From: a virus
Taxonomy: Duplodnaviria; Heunggongvirae; Uroviricota; Caudoviricetes
DNA length: 10,942 nucleotides
Strand: one strand, 5' to 3'
IMG/VR virus record: IMGVR_UViG_2778261459_000006
The notes under the pieces were generated by a model. That model saw only the letters and a program-made list of their open reading frames with translations. It was not told the DNA's origin and ran no database searches. The translations under genes and the position numbers were made by a program. Below, in pieces: positions 3,723 to 10,942 of the stretch (positions are counted from its first letter, which is position 1; each line of letters begins with the position of its first letter).

Positions 3723-3861
3723 TATCTCATTCCACGCCAGACGAACCAATTTAATCACACCTGAGCAAATGCATAGCCAGAACTTAAGGCCGTCAGAATG
3801 CGTTATATTGCGTTTAAACAGCATCAATTTTTAATTGCTTTTTGATGCGTGAATCGCAGGC

Positions 3862-3890
3862 AAAAAAAATCCCGCGAGTAGCGGCGGGAA
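3862..3890 (-). terminator. Candidate Rho-independent terminator on the minus strand
   Basis: On the minus strand a hairpin (TCCCGC / GCGGGA, 8-nt loop) is followed by a T8 run (complement of the A8 at 3862-3869). No minus-strand ORF is evident, so whatever it terminates would be non-coding or antisense. Confidence 0.45.
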
Positions 3891-4000
3891 ATAGAGACAT
3901 ATCGTTGTAGTTATTAATAGATCACATTTTGAGGCTGAGGATTTGCCTCACTAATATTATCGCGCCGTTACCTTTTAGTCGCAATTGATTGTTTGAAAGA

Positions 4001-4162: not shown

Positions 4163-4194
4163 AGCCCGCTGCCTTACTGGTCGCGGGCTTTTTC
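4163..4194 (+). terminator. Terminator-like hairpin immediately upstream of the RBS of the second alpA-like gene; possible attenuator or sRNA 3' end
   Basis: Stem AGCCCGC (4163-4169) / GCGGGCT (4183-4189), 13-nt loop, then TTTTT; GGAG RBS at 4202-4205 and ATG at 4214. Confidence 0.55.
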
Positions 4195-4213
4195 GTTTAC
4201 AGGAGCCTGAAAG

Positions 4214-4393
4214 ATGAAATCCATTACCCTGAAAGAAGTCTGCAATATTGCAGGCGTTACCCCTGAGACGTATCGGCGCTGGTTAAAAGAAAACTTGCCC
4301 GGTATCCCGTTACCATATACCCCGAAAGGGAAACATCTTCGTTTTTATGAGGACGAAGTGGTCGCCTGGATTAAAGGCCAGCGTGAGGGATAA
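4214..4393 (+). CDS. AlpA/Xis-family small HTH protein, 59 aa; absent from the ORF track
   Basis: AGGAG 8 nt upstream of ATG 4214. Translation is MKSITLKEVCNIAGVTPETYRRWLKENLPGIPLPYTPKGKHLRFYEDEVVAWIKGQREG, a paralog-like pattern of the 557..841 protein (LKEVC / MKDVC ... V-W ... W). Confidence 0.7.
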   Translation: MKSITLKEVCNIAGVTPETYRRWLKENLPGIPLPYTPKGKHLRFYEDEVVAWIKGQREG

Positions 4394-4425
4394 AGCAGTT
4401 TTTTATATTAAGAAGGGATTGGTAA

Positions 4426-5001
4426 ATGAGAAATGAAATCAAATATCAACATATCAAGCGTCTGTGGTGTCTAAAAGATGGCGTTATTTTTACGAGATGG
4501 GGCAATAAGCCTGTTTCTTTCTCCTGTAAAGTAAACGGGCGCCGCTATACAACGATTAAAGTTAACGGAAAATGGCACGCAGTTCTTATTTATGAAGCTA
4601 TTTTTATGCTGTTCCATGACCGCCCAATCGCTGAAGGAAAAGAAATCCACCACAAGGACGGCGATCCAGAAAATAACGCAATTGACAATCTTGTCGAGCT
4701 AACCAGAACGCAGCACAAGAGGATTCATCAATATCAGTGCAACGACCCGCTGCGCGGTATTTGCCTGAATCAAGGCGCATGGGAATTTAAATGGTATGAC
4801 GATAACGGAATATGCCGCAGCCGACGTTTCCACAGTATTAACGAGGCAATAAACTTCCGTGCCGAAATAGAAAAACCTCGCAGAAGAGAATTACGATTGC
4901 TAGGCTTGAACTGTCGTAAAAAATATCGCGGAATTACCGCAAGCCAACTACGCAAAATAAGCCGGAAGCAAAATTCTCGCTTATGGCGCACACACATTTA
5001 A
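4426..5001 (+). CDS. HNH endonuclease with an AP2-like DNA-binding domain, 191 aa
   Basis: HNH signature IHHKDGDPENNAIDNLVELTRTQHKRIH, then an AP2-like segment RGICLNQGAWEFKWYDDNGICRSRRFHSINEAINFRAEI. AAGGGA RBS upstream. Confidence 0.85.
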   Translation: MRNEIKYQHIKRLWCLKDGVIFTRWGNKPVSFSCKVNGRRYTTIKVNGKWHAVLIYEAIFMLFHDRPIAEGKEIHHKDGDPENNAIDNLVELTRTQHKRIHQYQCNDPLRGICLNQGAWEFKWYDDNGICRSRRFHSINEAINFRAEIEKPRRRELRLLGLNCRKKYRGITASQLRKISRKQNSRLWRTHI

Positions 5002-5020
5002 ACAACTGGAGATTTTTATC

Positions 5021-5287
5021 ATGTCTACTCATTCATTAGAACGCTTTATGAATATCGCACCGAAATCAGCTGAACAGGAAGCGCGCGAACAATTTCAGCG
5101 AAAACTAGAAGCAGCAGCGCGGCACATTGTCGAGAAGATGCCGGAGCTACTAATCCCGTTGATGGAAGAGCTGGCAGCAGAGCTTCAGAAAGAGATGCCG
5201 CAAGATATGGAAGGGACGGCACTACAACGACTGCAGTTTGAAGCAAGCCGCTTACTACATCTTCCAGTAGGTGCATTTCGTAAATAA
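5021..5287 (+). CDS. Hypothetical protein, 88 aa, predicted helical
   Basis: ATG start with GGAG upstream; tightly packed between the HNH gene and the next ORF. No family recognised. Confidence 0.55.
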   Translation: MSTHSLERFMNIAPKSAEQEAREQFQRKLEAAARHIVEKMPELLIPLMEELAAELQKEMPQDMEGTALQRLQFEASRLLHLPVGAFRK

Positions 5288-5302
5288 CAGGGAGAACGAA
5301 CT

Positions 5303-5998
5303 ATGAGCAAAACACAGGAAAGAATACACGAGCTTGAGGCTAAATATAGCCGCTTGCTGACTGAGCGTGACCATGCAACTGGCGCTGATCGCTATCTTGC
5401 GGAAAAAGAACTGAAAGCTACTCGTAAGATGATCATTAAGTTGCACGGTAAAAGCATTACAGAAGAGATACAGGGCCAAATACCTGACATGGTGAAACAT
5501 GCACTTGCTGGTGTAACTGCCCAGGTAACCGAACTGCGTAAACAAGCTGGCATGAAGGTTAATGCTGACGAAAAGCCGGACGAAACGCCAGACGAAAAGC
5601 CGCGTGATGAGCGTATCGCTGAGGCTTTGCATGTGGTTAAGAGCAATCTGCTTAACATGGAAATTGATGACCTCATCGACCTTCGGGATCGTGTCCTCAA
5701 GGCGGTTGAAAGTCGTAACCAGGCAGCAGAGCAAAACAAGCTGGCAGACATGACGGTTAACGCGAACCACGTCGGAGCACCGGACGCCGCCAGTTACTTT
5801 GACCCTAATCTGCCGAAAGAGATAGCTGACTACCTCGATCCGCCGTTGCCGCCAGAAATTGAAGCGCATTTCGCCGAAACGAAAACGGTCGCAGGGGTTG
5901 ACCTGGATTCATACTTTCAGGGCAACAATGAAGCGGCAGGGATTGATTTAGACGAATATTTCCTGCCAAGCAAGCACTACAGCGTAAGTAAAGACTGA
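5303..5998 (+). CDS. Hypothetical protein, 231 aa, with acidic C-terminal repeats
   Basis: GGGAGA RBS 7 nt upstream of the ATG. Short repeats DEKPDETPDEKP and DLD(S/E)YF / YFDPNLP / YLDPPLP. Followed by a terminator. No family recognised. Confidence 0.7.
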   Translation: MSKTQERIHELEAKYSRLLTERDHATGADRYLAEKELKATRKMIIKLHGKSITEEIQGQIPDMVKHALAGVTAQVTELRKQAGMKVNADEKPDETPDEKPRDERIAEALHVVKSNLLNMEIDDLIDLRDRVLKAVESRNQAAEQNKLADMTVNANHVGAPDAASYFDPNLPKEIADYLDPPLPPEIEAHFAETKTVAGVDLDSYFQGNNEAAGIDLDEYFLPSKHYSVSKD

Positions 5999-6005
5999 GC
6001 AAACA

Positions 6006-6026
6006 GGGGCCGCAGCGCCCCTTTTC
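6006..6026 (+). terminator. Rho-independent terminator after the 231-aa gene
   Basis: Stem GGGGC / GCCCC with a 6-nt loop, followed by TTTT. Confidence 0.6.
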
Positions 6027-6045
6027 ACTTTCTGGAGATGAGATC

Positions 6046-6324
6046 ATGTCAACGTCAATTACACTTCGGATCTGTATGGGTATGGCACGCGTTATCACGA
6101 AAGAGGTCACAGATATTAAGCACAGCAGCCGGGAGCTACCATTGCGCCGCCAGCAGTTGCGGATTTTCGCCAGTTACGTTTTTGGCACGTTCGCATCACT
6201 GAAGCGCAAATTGAATGGCGGGCCGGTCAGCAATGAAGAAGCGAATTTTTTAAAAAGACTCACGATGATAGAAAAAGACCTGCACACGCAGTTAGAAAGT
6301 ATCAAGGCAGACGTAGGCGAGTAA
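6046..6324 (+). CDS. Hypothetical protein, 92 aa
   Basis: ATG at 6046 with GGAG 9 nt upstream; stop TAA at 6322-6324. No family recognised. Confidence 0.5.
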   Translation: MSTSITLRICMGMARVITKEVTDIKHSSRELPLRRQQLRIFASYVFGTFASLKRKLNGGPVSNEEANFLKRLTMIEKDLHTQLESIKADVGE

Positions 6325-6375
6325 GTTAGCGAGGTGTTAGCGAACGATAGCGGGTAGTTAGCGAACGATAACGGG
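6325..6375. repeat. Tandem direct repeats of GTTAGCGA; two extended 19-bp copies, GTTAGCGAACGATA(G/A)CGGG, at 21-bp period
   Basis: Copies at 6325-6332, 6336-6354 and 6357-6375, intergenic, immediately upstream of the tail module. Confidence 0.8.
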
Positions 6376-6458
6376 CCGTTTTTTGAAGTTAGTTTTCAAT
6401 GCTAAAACCGCCGAAATCCGCGCCATACGGGTTTTTGCACTATATGAGGGGCGCTTTT

Positions 6459-6722
6459 ATGGGGGTAATTTTCGGACAAGTACTATGCGCGCGCGAGGCA
6501 ATCATGAAGCAAGACATAGCGGAAAGGCTGGAGATACTCGAAAACCAGCGAGAAGAAGCCAGACAGATGCGCAGGGAGGCAAATAAAGAGGGCCGGAAAA
6601 AAGATGCATGGCATCTGAGACAATTCATCAACTTTACAAACCGTTGCATCCAGGAGTGCTACATGGAAGACGCAGAAAACTGGCTGGATTCCTTGCCAGA
6701 AAAGCACGGAACAGAGCGATGA
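6459..6722 (+). CDS. Hypothetical protein, 87 aa from the RBS-supported ATG at 6459 (the ORF track starts it at 6399; 6504 is another possible start)
   Basis: GAGGGG 7 nt upstream of ATG 6459. The protein is charged and helical (…IAERLEILENQREEARQMRREANKEGRKK…). Stop TGA at 6720-6722, in the same frame as the next ORF. Confidence 0.45.
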   Translation: MGVIFGQVLCAREAIMKQDIAERLEILENQREEARQMRREANKEGRKKDAWHLRQFINFTNRCIQECYMEDAENWLDSLPEKHGTER

Positions 6723-6743
6723 TTGTTAGACGAAGGGGGTTAC

Positions 6744-7184
6744 ATGCCGATGAGACACCAGGCTGTCATTGAGCAGATCAAGCGGCAGCTAAGGGAAGAA
6801 ATCAAAGAGATTAGCAAGGACGCGGCGACAGCCGCATATGAGATCGCTATCACTGCCGAAGGCTATGCGGTAGCAGATACACCGAGAGACACGGGCACAC
6901 TTATAAACGGCTATTACATCAATATTGACGAAAATCCTGATGGTGCGCACGCCACTTTAGGTAATACGGAACGCTATGCGTATTGGGTTCATGAAATGCC
7001 GGGGATACTGAAAGGTCAACCGCGCGAACATTTCGGGAAGACAAGGGAAGGCGTTGCCTTTGGTGGCGGTACTGAAAAGGGTTGCTATTGGGATCCTGAT
7101 GCAAGGCCCAAATTCCTTGAGCTTGCGCTCGATGAGCATTACGACGAGTTTATGGATATAGCACGCAAATATTTAAAGCGATGA
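6744..7184 (+). CDS. HK97 gp10-like protein (tail completion / head-tail joining family), about 146 aa
   Basis: Motifs PRDTGTL, YAYWVHE and ARPKFLELAL fit the HK97 gp10-like pattern as I recall it. The ORF-track start at 6723 is a TTG; the ATG at 6744 follows a GAAGGGGG RBS. Confidence 0.6.
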   Translation: MPMRHQAVIEQIKRQLREEIKEISKDAATAAYEIAITAEGYAVADTPRDTGTLINGYYINIDENPDGAHATLGNTERYAYWVHEMPGILKGQPREHFGKTREGVAFGGGTEKGCYWDPDARPKFLELALDEHYDEFMDIARKYLKR

Positions 7185-7193
7185 GGTGAGATC

Positions 7194-9374
7194 ATGGGTG
7201 AACAGGTCGGAAGCCTTCAGATAGATATTGACCTGAAGACAAAAAATTTATTGGTAAGCCAAAACCAGGCTGAAAACGCGCTTGATAATATTGGCAATAA
7301 AATCAGCGGTGTGGAACGCAAAACAAAGACCTTTAACACGCAGTTAACTAAAACATCTGCCGCAGTCAAAAGCAGCCTTTCCCCGGCAATTCGCAACGCA
7401 TCGTTTCAGATCGCGGATTTAGCTACCCAATTGCAGATGGGCGGTAATGCTCTGGCGGCATTTGCCGTTCAGGGCGCACAGTTATTAGCTGGCTTTGGCA
7501 CGATGGGCGCGGTAGCTGGCGCGGTGCTGGCTATAGCTGGCGCTATGGGTGGAAGCCTGGCACAAGGCGCTGATAGTGCAGCCGGATCGGTTGAGTACCT
7601 GGACAAGGCGATCACCAAACTGAACGAGGTCATAGCTGTAAATGAGCAGGGCGTGACGGTGATGACTGATAGTTACGCCAATCTTTCTAAGGTTAACGCT
7701 GAAGTAGCGAAACAGATGCGGAACATGGCTGAAATTCAGGCAATTGCAGCACTGCGTGACCTGAAAGAACAGGCAAGCCAGGCACAGGGGGAAATGTCAT
7801 CATTCTGGCGTAGCTTGCAGGGCGGTAAAGCTGACGCAGCAGCAGCAGCACAGGCACTTGATGACCTGGGAATCACGACCAACGACTATAAAGAAGCGAT
7901 CGCCACACTTAACGCCAATCAGCCGGATACACAGGCGCAGATGGCGACGCTGGCTAAATCCGTGATGTATGTTGGCGAAGAATACGATCTGACCAATCAG
8001 CAAGCCTACGAATTCATCCGGGCGCTGAATAAGGCCGCGACAACGAAAACACCGGAAGCAATGCAGGAGCTATCTGGCTTCATGCAGGTATTGCTACAGG
8101 ACACAGAAAACGGTAACGAGGCATTCAGGGAACTGGCTATCAAATTCGTTGATGCACAAACCAAAGGCGCAATGCTGGAAGACCAACTAAACCGACTGAA
8201 AGGCGCTATCAGTGACGCAGCCACAGAAGCCAGAAACGCCAATTTTACCACTATGCTCAACACCGTCGCCGCACGCCTGGCAGCCATTGAGCAAGGTTGG
8301 GAGGCAGGTGTCAGGATGCAGATGAAAGCCCAGGGCTACACTGAAGAGCAGATCGATGAATATGTGAACATGGAAACGGCGTACAGGGATGCAAAAGCCG
8401 CTTTGGACGAGAAGAACAAGGCCGACCGTGAAGCAATTGCGCTATCCAAACGCCAGGCCGCAGAAGCCGCCCGCAAGGCAAAACAGGAAGAAGCTGAAGC
8501 ACAACGCAAGGCCAAACAGTTAGCGGCGCAGAAAGAACAGGCCGGACGCTTTACGCAGCAGGTGATGACGGAATATCAAACGACCGTGGATCCGGCAACA
8601 GGCCAGGCGTTGAACCCTGCCGCACAAGTGGAAATGCAGGAGCAGCAGAAGAAAACGGCATTAGATAAATACAGGCAGTTGGGTGTTTTGGGTGAGCAGG
8701 AGTATCAGAACACGCTAACAGCCATCCAGAAAACTGCATCAATGCGCCGCCAGCAAATCATCAAAGACGAGGCTGACACGTTATTCAACAATCAGCAGCA
8801 GTTGATCGGCACATTTGGCGATTTCTTCGGTGAACTGTCTGGAGTCATAGCAGACGGCGCGGGTGAGCAAAATGCGGCATATCAAGCGCTATTTGCTGTG
8901 CAGAAGGGGTTTGTATTGGCGTCGGCAGCTTTAAGCCTTCAAAAAGCGCTGGCAGAGGCAAACGCCTTACCTTTCCCGGCTAACCTTCCGGCCTATGCGC
9001 AAGCGATGTCAGCAGGTACGCAGATCATTTCAGCTATTCGTGGAATAGCTTTCGGTGGCGGACGCTACAACGGCGGCGCGGTTGGTGCTGGCAACCTGTA
9101 CCGCGTGGGTGAACACGGTAAGCCTGAGATATTCAAGGCGAACAATGGCAGCCAGTACATGATCCCAGGTGATAACGGTCGCGTGATAAGTAATCGTGAC
9201 ATTGGCGGCGGTGGCGGCGTAACAATCAACAGCCCGATCACCATTAACACTACGAATGGCTTCAGTGATGAAGACTCAAGGCGTCTTGAGGAAGCGATGA
9301 AGCGCGTAGCTATGGGCGTTTGCAGGCAGGAGTCAACCAGACCGGGAGGAATGTTAGCCCCGCGCCGCCGTTAA
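7194..9374 (+). CDS. Phage tail tape measure protein, lambda gpH-like, 726 aa
   Basis: N-terminus MGEQVGSLQIDIDLK, then a Gly/Ala-rich hydrophobic segment (…AAFAVQGAQLLAGFGTMGAVAGAVLAIAGAMGG…), a K/A/E/Q-rich helical region and a glycine-rich C-terminus with GNLYRVGEHGKPEIF. This resembles lambda-H-family proteins by eye. Confidence 0.8.
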   Translation: MGEQVGSLQIDIDLKTKNLLVSQNQAENALDNIGNKISGVERKTKTFNTQLTKTSAAVKSSLSPAIRNASFQIADLATQLQMGGNALAAFAVQGAQLLAGFGTMGAVAGAVLAIAGAMGGSLAQGADSAAGSVEYLDKAITKLNEVIAVNEQGVTVMTDSYANLSKVNAEVAKQMRNMAEIQAIAALRDLKEQASQAQGEMSSFWRSLQGGKADAAAAAQALDDLGITTNDYKEAIATLNANQPDTQAQMATLAKSVMYVGEEYDLTNQQAYEFIRALNKAATTKTPEAMQELSGFMQVLLQDTENGNEAFRELAIKFVDAQTKGAMLEDQLNRLKGAISDAATEARNANFTTMLNTVAARLAAIEQGWEAGVRMQMKAQGYTEEQIDEYVNMETAYRDAKAALDEKNKADREAIALSKRQAAEAARKAKQEEAEAQRKAKQLAAQKEQAGRFTQQVMTEYQTTVDPATGQALNPAAQVEMQEQQKKTALDKYRQLGVLGEQEYQNTLTAIQKTASMRRQQIIKDEADTLFNNQQQLIGTFGDFFGELSGVIADGAGEQNAAYQALFAVQKGFVLASAALSLQKALAEANALPFPANLPAYAQAMSAGTQIISAIRGIAFGGGRYNGGAVGAGNLYRVGEHGKPEIFKANNGSQYMIPGDNGRVISNRDIGGGGGVTINSPITINTTNGFSDEDSRRLEEAMKRVAMGVCRQESTRPGGMLAPRRR

Positions 9375-9636
9375 CCAACTCCCACGCCAGGGGGATAGAC
9401 TGGCGGACCCTTCACGCTCCTACGCAAAAATTCCCTCACAATCGCCCTGTCAATTTTTCAGATTTCACCAGAACGCGCCTGAAACAGCCTTCCCACATCC
9501 TTGATATTCCGTACGCCCTGCTAAAAGCGTGATCTGCGACAAAAATTGTACTTTTTGCCGTTGATTCGGGGTCTGTATGGGAATAATCTCACAATCAAAG
9601 AGAGGTAAGGGTATTTGGGAAATGGAGGAAAGTATC

Positions 9637-10263
9637 ATGGCTAACGCAGCTTATATTCGTGTTTCTACTATCGCTCAGGATACATTGCGCCAACGCGAGG
9701 CTATCGCTAACACTGGCATGAAGTTTGAGAAAATCGTTGAAGAGAAAAGGTCAGGTAAAGACCTCGATCGCCCGGCACTGCGGGAGCTATGCGGCTGGTT
9801 ACGTGAAGGTGACGACCTGTACGTCGCATCAATTGACCGCCTGGGGCGCAAACTGACTGATGTAATGGGCGTGGTTGATGAACTGCGGCAGAAAGGGGTT
9901 CGGGTCCACTTTCTGAAAGAAGGGCAGATCATCGGTGGCGAGATGAACGCGGTTCAGGAGTTCTTTATTCAGCTCATGGCAGCAGCCGCGCAGATGGAAC
10001 GTAGCTTTATGCTTGAACGCCAGAAAGAGGCGAACGAAGCCAGGAGGGCGGCAGGGAAACCGGTTGGGCGTGGGCTGGCACCGAAGATTAAGCAGCAGCT
10101 GCCGTACATCCTCAAGGACATGGAACAACGCAAGGAGTCCATGAGCGACCTTTGCCGCAAATACAAAGTGGCGCGAAGCACAATGTACCGGATCCGCGAC
10201 AACGCCATTCGTGACGGGAAGCTGCCGGAAATTGTGAAGGTCAAAAAGGTCGTCATCAACTAA
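9637..10263 (+). CDS. Small serine recombinase (resolvase/invertase family), 208 aa
   Basis: N-terminal catalytic pattern AYIRVSTIAQ...SGKDLDRPALREL...GDDLYVASIDRLGRKL...GVRVHFL and a C-terminal HTH (ARSTMYRIR). GGAGGA 7 nt upstream of ATG 9637; the ORF-track start at 9577 is probably too far upstream. Confidence 0.9.
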   Translation: MANAAYIRVSTIAQDTLRQREAIANTGMKFEKIVEEKRSGKDLDRPALRELCGWLREGDDLYVASIDRLGRKLTDVMGVVDELRQKGVRVHFLKEGQIIGGEMNAVQEFFIQLMAAAAQMERSFMLERQKEANEARRAAGKPVGRGLAPKIKQQLPYILKDMEQRKESMSDLCRKYKVARSTMYRIRDNAIRDGKLPEIVKVKKVVIN

Positions 10264-10276
10264 CCCACCAAAACAA

Positions 10277-10313
10277 AGGGGACTCAGCAATATCACCGAG
10301 TCCCCTTTTTCTT
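10277..10313 (+). terminator. Rho-independent terminator after the recombinase gene
   Basis: Stem AGGGGACTC (10277-10285) / GAGTCCCCT (10298-10306), 12-nt loop, then TTTTT. Confidence 0.8.
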
Positions 10314-10365
10314 TCTCACAATCCCCGCTGACATTATAACCGCCATTCCCTGGTTTTATCATTTG

Positions 10366-10517: not shown

Positions 10518-10942
10518 ATGTATCAGCCAATGACTTTACCGGATCTGCTATTTGCCGCCGCCGACCGCGCGGGCTATGTCAACAGTAGCGGCAAACTGAA
10601 ACGCAAGGGGTTAGCTGATGCTCTCGGTATCGGTGAGCAGGCGCTTAACAGCTACATGAAAGGTAGCCGGGATGTTAGCACAGAACAACTAAATAACATG
10701 CTGACATTGCTTGGCGTGTACGGCATCGCACCATTCAAGGGCAATCAATGGATGGCGCTGGACGTGGATTATAAAGCGCGTAGCGACGAGATTGTCAGTA
10801 ACAAGATGATTGCGCTGGAACGCGATAACCAGCAAAAGGCACAGCAGATCGCAGCACTGAAAGCTGAGATTGATATGTTGAAAAACCAGTTAAGCAACAA
10901 AATTGATATTGTAGACAAACCGGTTAATCAACAAATCGAGAC
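10518..10942 (+). CDS. 5' part of the junction-spanning XRE-type HTH regulator (continues at 1..408)
   Basis: ATG at 10518; the N-terminus has an HTH pattern (GLADALGIGEQALNSYMKGSRDVSTEQL) followed by a coiled-coil-like segment. The frame runs off the window end and is in phase with 1..408. Confidence 0.7.
   Translation, partial: MYQPMTLPDLLFAAADRAGYVNSSGKLKRKGLADALGIGEQALNSYMKGSRDVSTEQLNNMLTLLGVYGIAPFKGNQWMALDVDYKARSDEIVSNKMIALERDNQQKAQQIAALKAEIDMLKNQLSNKIDIVDKPVNQQIE
10866..10942. repeat. Terminal 77-nt exact duplicate of nt 1-77; circular-contig overlap
   Basis: Direct comparison shows 77 of 77 identical, ending exactly at the window edge. Confidence 0.85.

Follow-up and report, generated by a model that had tools for sequence, protein, structure and literature searches.

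The satellite SaPI1 reportedly redirects the capsid size of phage 80alpha through its proteins CpmB and CpmA. CpmB is a helical protein which carries the C-terminal capsid-binding motif of the helper scaffold and competes with that scaffold, and it is encoded in a late operon near packaging genes. Satellite P4, which is enterobacterial and can persist in a plasmid state, also re-sizes the capsids of its helper through a scaffold-type protein of its own. The Gram-negative phage-inducible chromosomal islands (PICIs), such as EcCICFT073, are E. coli islands of small size. They combine a regulator of the AlpA type with a replication module, and their late operon diverts the packaging of the helper (PMC6092414, PMC6739421). 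Traits of these systems recur in a stretch of viral DNA of 10,942 nucleotides (nt) assigned to the Caudoviricetes (IMG/VR virus record IMGVR_UViG_2778261459_000006), referred to here, at its full length, as the window. An operon that begins at position 4214 of the window encodes a protein of 231 amino acids (aa) bearing several copies of a short motif which, in phages, terminates the protein encoded at the position of the scaffold gene.

Positions 4214-6722 are probably, though by no means certainly, the front of a satellite operon that hijacks morphogenesis with a competing-scaffold mimic and acts on siphophages of the mEp021 group (mEpimmI type). The operon would act on virion assembly in these phages. 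The 231-aa protein would have arisen by divergence from the C-terminal region of their scaffold-position protein, with the tip motif multiplied to four or five copies, and would most likely compete with the phage scaffold for a common partner, presumably the major capsid protein. On the principle of CpmB, helper capsids may be re-sized or blocked as a result. An earlier note on this DNA had expected a satellite-like element with a helper-directed function in this interval, and the mimicry of a phage scaffold C-terminus bears this out. The satellite lifestyle itself is suggested by gene content and size, both of which fit a phage satellite; no member of the family holds a capsid, portal, TerL, tail-tube or lysis gene. 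Two features carry the argument.

5303-5998, plus strand: the 231-aa 'YF-repeat' protein, a putative scaffold-tip mimic (alignment A2, hhalign)
5774-5962, plus strand: array of tip motifs within the 231-aa gene, reading GAPDAASYF, (IADYL), EIEAHF, GVDLDSYF and GIDLDEYF

The family of the 231-aa protein consists of a helical N-terminal part and a C-terminal array of four to five motifs with the consensus P/I-D-L/I-x-S/E-Y-F-D/G. In the 231-aa protein the motif takes the form GAPDxxSYF / DLDxYF and occurs four or five times. The window allele is represented by 8 clusters among 5.8 billion sequences. One clade of related islands encodes an additional paralogue of 110-114 aa, which ends in two motifs (KTPDLNSYF...RTPDIDNYFN*, the asterisk marking the end of the protein).

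Phage mEp013 is one of the non-lambdoid coliphages that make up the mEpimmI group, and the 2025 description of that group does not mention a satellite (PMC11893012). A scan of mEp013 for the motif gave a single match, at the extreme C-terminus of mEp013_75 (...GGNKPATPDINNYFA; TPDINNYFA). This 423-aa protein (L178:6716-7987) falls in phrog_760, listed under 'unknown function', and its gene lies between a Mu-F-like head-morphogenesis gene and the genes for the decoration and major capsid proteins. The last third of the protein is helical, with a high content of A, E and K. It is called the scaffold-position protein because of this gene position, together with the helical C-terminal part. Homologues from E. 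coli prophages have the ending ...GEVPDFNTYF*, and those of other Enterobacterales end in TGAPDPAAYFGGAA, GAPDPAAYFGGAA, GAPNPDEYFK* or GAPAASEYFK*. The tips of island and phage proteins are near-identical: GAPNPDEYFSP in island L002 corresponds to GAPNPDEYFK* in a phage, KAPDFNSYFD* in L095 to VPDFNTYF* in an E. coli prophage, and the island ending TPDIDNYFN* to TPDINNYFA* in mEp013, while the window copy reads GAPDAASYFDP.

The motif is also specific in its distribution. A regular expression for the tip found 35 matches in the 2.95 million residues of six-frame open reading frames (ORFs) from 160 prophage loci. Of these matches, 21 lie no more than six residues from an ORF end, and the ends with a tip that were inspected are C-termini of the scaffold-position protein. 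Across 13 island loci, all 22 matches fall in the YF-repeat protein or its 110-114-aa paralogue.

The scaffold-position proteins of the prophages (L005-L177, L178) have an N-terminal domain in common, and their tips divide them into at least two classes, ...GAPDxxxYF(GGAA) and ...QSVSEMPE. A few homologues end otherwise, and the copies in E. coli prophages stop aligning at the DNA level in the tip region.

Profile comparison with hhalign supports the relation. The YF-repeat family (A2) matched the last 125 aa of the phage scaffold-position protein (A11) at a probability of 84.6% (E 6.9e-6), with residues 23-169 of the 231-aa protein aligned over 108 columns. Control comparisons gave 0.05% for the TerS-like family, 1.2% for the family of the 88-aa protein and 0.4% for that of the 92-aa protein, both encoded in the same operon.

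One defining feature of a CpmB-type protein, a C-terminal motif shared with the helper scaffold, appears to be present, given tips that are identical or near-identical and the profile match. The 231-aa protein and CpmB have no sequence relation, and the 231-aa protein gave no match in Pfam, PHROG or the PDB; the two would be functional analogues at most. The systems differ in other respects. The tip is present here in four to five copies, with two more in the paralogue of some islands; the host is Gram-negative; and the protein is apparently derived from the C-terminal domain of a helper-type scaffold. The resemblance to P4 is more distant. The Sid protein of P4 is an external scaffold and no scaffold-tip mimic, and no homologue of Sid, Psu or Delta was detected by Pfam, PHROG or NCBIfam.

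The identity of the putative helper is suggested by the genes that follow. The operon does not end at 6722; it continues into two tail genes and forms a late operon of 4214-9374.

6744-7184, plus strand: gp10-like tail-completion protein, 146 aa (phrog_5, 7.5e-9)
7194-9374, plus strand: tape-measure-like protein, 726 aa (phrog_1538, 3e-100)

The gp10-like protein is 47% identical to mEp013_81, which is likewise 146 aa long. The tape-measure-like protein is 86-93% identical among the relatives examined and measures 726-727 aa in most of them (732-733 aa in L096 and L097). Only its C-terminal 93 aa are close to the 735-aa tape-measure protein of mEp013 (72% identity). Relatives of it found in collections of genomes and of viruses belong to ordinary prophages, which do not have the four protein families of this operon that lack a recognised function. 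The TerS-like proteins of the related islands match Sf6_terminase (2.7e-12) and are 32-38% identical to the TerS of mEp013. Being of the Sf6 type, they argue for pac-type over cos packaging, which sets the family apart from the Gram-negative PICIs. The virion-gene relatives are mEp021-group phages, and the link to HK97-like phages drawn in the earlier note is not supported.

The tail genes are themselves unusual for a satellite. The rule applied by SatelliteFinder forbids tail or holin genes in PICIs (PMC10085698), and this element carries both the tape-measure-like and the gp10-like gene. Satellite finders would probably miss or reject it, since they treat such genes as disqualifying. There is a precedent in the EPIP satellites of Mycolicibacterium, which encode their own tape-measure, TerS and head-tail proteins, and the preprint that describes them calls a tape measure in a satellite unusual (PMC12822802). 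Their hosts and sequences are unrelated to those of the present family, and EPIPs reportedly encode their own capsid or scaffold proteins as well as a serine integrase (PMC12822802).

A number of observations weigh against the proposal of a scaffold mimic in a satellite operon. The AlphaFold2 model of the 231-aa protein reaches a predicted local distance difference test (pLDDT) of 55, too low for a fold search; long helices are predicted at residues 3-81 (pLDDT 60-88), and the motif array falls below 50, with disorder as the prediction. In the hhalign match, confidence is mostly confined to the last 20 or so columns, at the tip. The family did not match the second scaffold class (0.2%), the remaining control. 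The motifs are internal in the 231-aa protein, from 65 to 11 residues before its end, and are at the extreme C-terminus in phages. As for mEp013_75, it has no Pfam or PDB match, and its role as a scaffold is deduced from position and the helical C-terminal part. The window has no TerS-like gene, with a 72-aa gene in that slot, and relatives of the 92-aa protein were not found in the viral contigs of IMG/VR. Finally, the mEp013-type scaffold gene is rare in E. coli, with 35 of 5,426 genomes containing it, and an mEp013-type prophage was co-resident in none of the seven island-bearing genomes that were inspected.

Alternatively, the element could be a module for interference or defence only, that is, a plasmid or island that poisons mEp021-type phages with decoys and is never packaged or transferred. 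The scaffold-tip mimic and the look-alikes of the tape-measure and tail-completion proteins would then be the decoys. The evidence for mimicry applies equally to this explanation, and so do the absence of a TerS-like gene from the window, the plasmid-type resolvase with its 91% nucleotide identity to 8-kb plasmids, and the form of a circle without a tyrosine integrase. Against it, most relatives encode a TerS-like protein homologous to the TerS of the phage, which is sensible only for packaging, and PADLOC recognised no defence system. Interference alone is therefore considered unlikely, although it deserves more weight than the remaining alternatives.

Less probable still is that the YF motif is a short linear motif for a different target, for example the prohead protease, the portal or a protein of the host, and that there is no competition with the scaffold. 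The centring of the homology on the motif, the predicted disorder of the motif region and the 'unknown function' label of phrog_760 are all compatible with this. Against such a partner stands the specificity of the motif for the C-terminus of the scaffold-position protein. The C-termini of scaffold proteins are capsid-binding elements in P22, 80alpha/SaPI1 and P2, and this role likewise speaks for the capsid protein as the target.

The remaining genes and signals of the operon, in which competition with the scaffold is the favoured role of the 231-aa protein, are as follows.

4163-4198, plus strand: terminator-like hairpin (4163-4189) with a U-run, -19.3 kcal/mol, z -2.97
4214-4393, plus strand: AlpA2, 59 aa, a DNA-binding winged helix (HTH_17 / MerR-like / excisionase-type)
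4426-5001, plus strand: 191-aa protein with an HNH_3 nuclease head and a conserved C-terminal tail of about 30 aa
5021-5287, plus strand: 88-aa helical core protein (alignment A3, dN/dS 0.15-0.17)
6005-6022, plus strand: weak hairpin resembling a terminator, in the gap from the 231-aa to the 92-aa gene, -11.2 kcal/mol, z -1.05
6046-6324, plus strand: 92-aa core protein
6325-6375, plus strand: helically phased direct repeats GTTAGCGA at 6325, 6336 and 6357, a 21-nt unit in 2.3 copies (Tandem Repeats Finder score 75)
6504-6722, plus strand: 72-aa helical protein, located where most relatives hold a TerS-like gene

The ORFs run on the plus strand from 4214, each preceded by a Shine-Dalgarno-like sequence and separated by gaps of 15-47 nt. 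The strong hairpin at 4163-4198 sits 15 nt before the ribosome-binding site of AlpA2, and no sigma-70 consensus promoter was found between this hairpin and the AlpA2 start codon. Expression of the operon therefore probably needs read-through or an activator.

The 88-, 231- and 92-aa ORFs are real genes. Homologues at the same position were present in all 13 related islands or circles examined, at 25-96% identity (25-97% for the 88-aa protein) and with invariant residues. The ratio of nonsynonymous to synonymous substitution rates (dN/dS) against relatives was 0.15-0.17 for the 88-aa, 0.26-0.37 for the 231-aa and 0.13-0.29 for the 92-aa protein, which indicates purifying selection. Gene order is conserved in the same 13 relatives. 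A winged-helix gene is followed by a variable gene in some, then by the 88-aa and 231-aa families, by the 110-114-aa paralogue in one clade and by the 92-aa family (alignment A4). After this come a repeat array where present, a TerS-like or 72-76-aa gene, in some a gene of about 130 aa and a gp10-like gene, and lastly the tape-measure gene. The interval had earlier been taken for a cargo operon of six ORFs. All six ORFs were found at about the positions given for them; the three proteins of 88, 231 and 92 aa belong to the core of the family and are not cargo, no AP2 domain was detected by Pfam in the product of the second gene, the last product is shorter than thought, and the unit extends past 6722. 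The four proteins without a recognised function gave nothing usable in Pfam, PHROG, NCBIfam or PADLOC and no sequence match in the PDB.

AlpA2 matches Pfam HTH_17 (5.3e-8) and MerR_1 (3.3e-6) and the TIGR01764 excisionase domain (4e-6). Pfam Phage_AlpA was not matched by AlpA2, and AlpA1, the first AlpA-like protein of the window, stayed under the cut-off (17.4 against 21 bits). The label AlpA-like is thus justified at the level of the superfamily and not at that of the Phage_AlpA family. AlpA2 is 100% identical in the related circle L090, and it may serve as a regulator or DNA-binding component of the operon. Among PDB sequences it comes closest to RppC, whose DNA-binding domain (6hlk) it matches at E 0.014, with residues 6-57 aligned to 10-58, a further likeness to the Gram-negative PICIs. 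No Rpp protein is present: the Rpp architecture comprises 144-153 aa, with a winged helix and a C-terminal domain for dimerisation and TerS binding, and AlpA2 has 59 aa and no dimerisation domain. None of the four proteins without a recognised function matched RppC.

RppC is a PICI protein that redirects the packaging of lambda. As a weak lead, AlpA2 could bind a packaging-related site instead of, or in addition to, a promoter.

The 191-aa protein contains an HNH_3 domain (PF13392, 1.2e-10, residues 68-99) with an intact HH..D..NN..H motif. An AP2 domain (PF00847), which had been assigned to it earlier, was undetected in residues 100-191 at E<=10; the label goes back to a pattern seen by eye, which the segment RGICLNQGAWEFKWYDDNGICRSRRFHSINEAINF may resemble. 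Comparison with the related circles L090 and L087, which are 92-96% identical on both flanks, reveals a clean cassette, with 4394-4928 standing in place of 44 bp. In these two relatives, a 37-aa ORF is all that is left at the HNH position (MSKPINCNCKKTHYGITASQLRKISRTPNTRLWRTHI), and in L085 a 266-aa KilA-N protein is found there. The 191-aa protein, the KilA-N protein and the 37-aa ORF have in common the tail NC+KK..GITASQLRKISR..N.RLWRT, and this segment of about 30 aa is under purifying selection (dN/dS 0.10-0.16). Other islands encode unrelated HNH proteins of 131 or 178 aa, or no HNH protein. Since the tail is kept while the head is swapped for KilA-N or for nothing, the nuclease behaves as an exchangeable head on a conserved small protein. 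The HNH_3 head is one of several interchangeable N-terminal domains, and the family can do without it. Its catalytic residues and sporadic presence are those of a homing-type HNH_3 nuclease; the apparent lack of AP2 and the in-frame fusion to the tail, in place of a free-standing ORF, are not.

This bears on the suggestion that the locus is an accessory cargo operon whose HNH endonuclease cooperates with the cos terminase of a helper. The catalytic motif is intact and a repeat array lies nearby, as such a role would allow. The HNH of HK97 gp74 type, to which that role belongs, is of the PF01844 type, is conserved and lies beside terS/terL and cos; the present protein is of the HNH_3 type, which is not terminase-associated, and no TerL gene is present. 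L090 and L087 lack the HNH gene, and L085 has KilA-N in its stead. In phages it comes closest, at 30-35% identity, to free-standing HNH genes of lytic T5- and T7-like phages, and the protein had no match in the PDB sequence search. As three of the proteins without a recognised function are core and the TerS-like proteins of the relatives are Sf6-type, the cos-terminase explanation is very improbable.

The 88-aa protein and the 92-aa protein are co-inherited with the 231-aa protein as core partners and may act as adaptors. The 92-aa protein is confidently predicted to form an up-down three-helix bundle. Its family comprises 159 clusters, and every one of these with a named source is from E. coli. 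The possibility that the 88-aa protein mimics the second scaffold class, raised by the segment QSEMPED and the tip QSVSEMPE*, was rejected at an hhalign score of 0.9%. No relatives of the 88-, 92- or 72-aa proteins or of the HNH protein were found anywhere in mEp013.

The last ORF has possible starts at 6399, 6459 and 6504, which give products of 107, 87 and 72 aa. The conserved product is, judging by the relatives, the 72 aa from the ATG at 6504, and not the protein of about 87 aa first proposed. Relatives are annotated at 76 aa; in L097 the upstream ATG opens a different reading frame, which terminates with an ATGA overlap. The interval 6399-6503 aligns with non-coding DNA of L094 and behaves as non-coding. 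The family (A6) has the invariant segment ECYxEDAENWLDSLP and is represented by 9 short clusters only among 1.84 billion representatives in a HMMER search. The 72-aa protein would stand in for the TerS-like protein of most relatives. The idea that it is a fragment or mimic of TerS was discarded, since in hhalign its profile resembled neither the TerS-like nor the 129-aa family.

The invariant segment resembles EYLEDAEYNW, which is located in the C-terminal extension of a 214-aa TerS-like protein (L094:5918-6562). The match amounts to the eight residues YxEDAE(Y)NW, too short to be significant, and the hhalign probability was 2.8%.

The 11-bp-phased repeats at 6325-6375 are a candidate DNA site. 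Relatives have four to eight units of G[TC][TC]AG[CA]GA, or of AATTCGGGGGT/AATTCGCTATC, at an exact 11-bp spacing and immediately 5' of the TerS-like gene. Co-variation of the array with AlpA2, with the 92-aa protein or with the type of TerS was not decisive, as arrays travel with the adjacent downstream gene.

The element as a whole is a circle of 10,865 bp. Positions 1-77 and 10866-10942 of the window are identical, and this 77-nt end overlap falls within a gene that is unbroken in relatives. Outside the late operon, the following features were identified.

Within 831-2083: rep-like ORF, 336 aa, overlapping the first AlpA-like gene, with a weak C-terminal HTH_36 match only
1951-2083: six 22-nt iterons (AACCATCAGTTTTGTACCCATAT), after the rep-like ORF
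9415-10338: serine recombinase of resolvase/invertase type, 228 aa, where integrated relatives have genes of 62 and 78 aa
10518-10942 joined to 1-408: HTH_3 protein, 251 aa, spanning the circle junction

Positions 831-2083 are likely a rep/ori module. Relatives have other replicons at this position, with a 270-aa protein, DUF5906 (L093) or HTH_36. The serine recombinase gene is 91% identical at the nucleotide level to those of the 8-kb non-mobilisable E. coli plasmids NZ_CP062859 and NZ_CP062904. The 251-aa HTH_3 protein, which contains a tandem repeat of about 31 aa (LSNK[I/S]DIVDKPVNQQ...), is encoded by the flanking gene most widely conserved across the family. No tyrosine integrase was found among the ORFs of the window, which in this respect departs from the PICIs with their end-located integrase and dedicated att site; integrated relatives have intZ or another integrase.

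The window is matched at the DNA level by 262 of 5,426 complete E. coli genomes. Its relatives are E. coli islands of 10-12 kb that occupy either the CPZ-55 site, which lies between eutB and eutA and comes with intZ, or a site beside ychJ. Others are circular contigs (L087, L090/91, L093) that measure 8.8-11 kb and encode no integrase. Together with the window, these suggest that the island family has a form that is plasmid-like or packaged. The CPZ-55 cryptic prophage of E. coli K-12 shares its site and the type of integrase with the integrated relatives, although no K-12 record is among the matches listed for the 262 genomes. The literature search found no description of the family, either under CPZ-55 as a satellite or among E. 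coli satellites with tape-measure genes. That the locus is a decaying remnant of a cryptic prophage, with small ORFs of no current function, has hardly any credibility: the CPZ-55 site would fit, and so would tail genes that stand alone with the other parts of a tail module missing, and against it stand purifying selection, synteny kept among over ten divergent islands at two integration sites, a nearly invariant tape-measure length and circular contigs from several independent assemblies.

Some further observations concern the non-coding parts of the element. A 106-nt direct repeat of 78% identity (2526-2631 and 2836-2941) is found in the long non-coding region that separates the iterons from a 206-aa gene. 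The non-coding block 3728-3970 is 73-99% identical among islands that differ on either side of it, and in the ychJ islands a piece of about 115 nt (window positions 3727-3841 or so) sits at the opposite end. The block contains a minus-strand terminator at 3889-3862, with a promoter-like site at 3984-3956, and is a candidate for encoding a small RNA of about 90 nt; Rfam gave no match in the whole window at E<=1, this block included. One contig (L086, ENA contig NODE_1828) joins an island to Firmicute-like genes (SpoIIE, DUF896) and is probably a chimeric metagenome assembly.

A broader proposal, which is put forward tentatively and with less than even confidence, is that the family forms an unrecognised class of satellites parasitising mEpimmI phages. 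Such elements would exist as integrase-less, plasmid-like circles or as chromosomal islands and would remodel both the capsid and the tail of the helper, the former through the scaffold-derived protein with its multiplied tip and the latter through their own length-conserved tape-measure protein. They would have been missed by satellite finders. If this is correct, the family would provide a second, independent case of the competing-scaffold strategy, here in a Gram-negative host and with the tip multiplied within one protein, and it would offer a short and concrete peptide motif. A recently defined, gut-prevalent group of coliphages would gain a satellite family. Tail genes, whose presence is grounds for exclusion in the detection tools of today, would be shown to occur in satellites. 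The HNH gene would no longer be read as a packaging factor, and the CPZ-55 'cryptic prophage site' would become the site of a satellite system.

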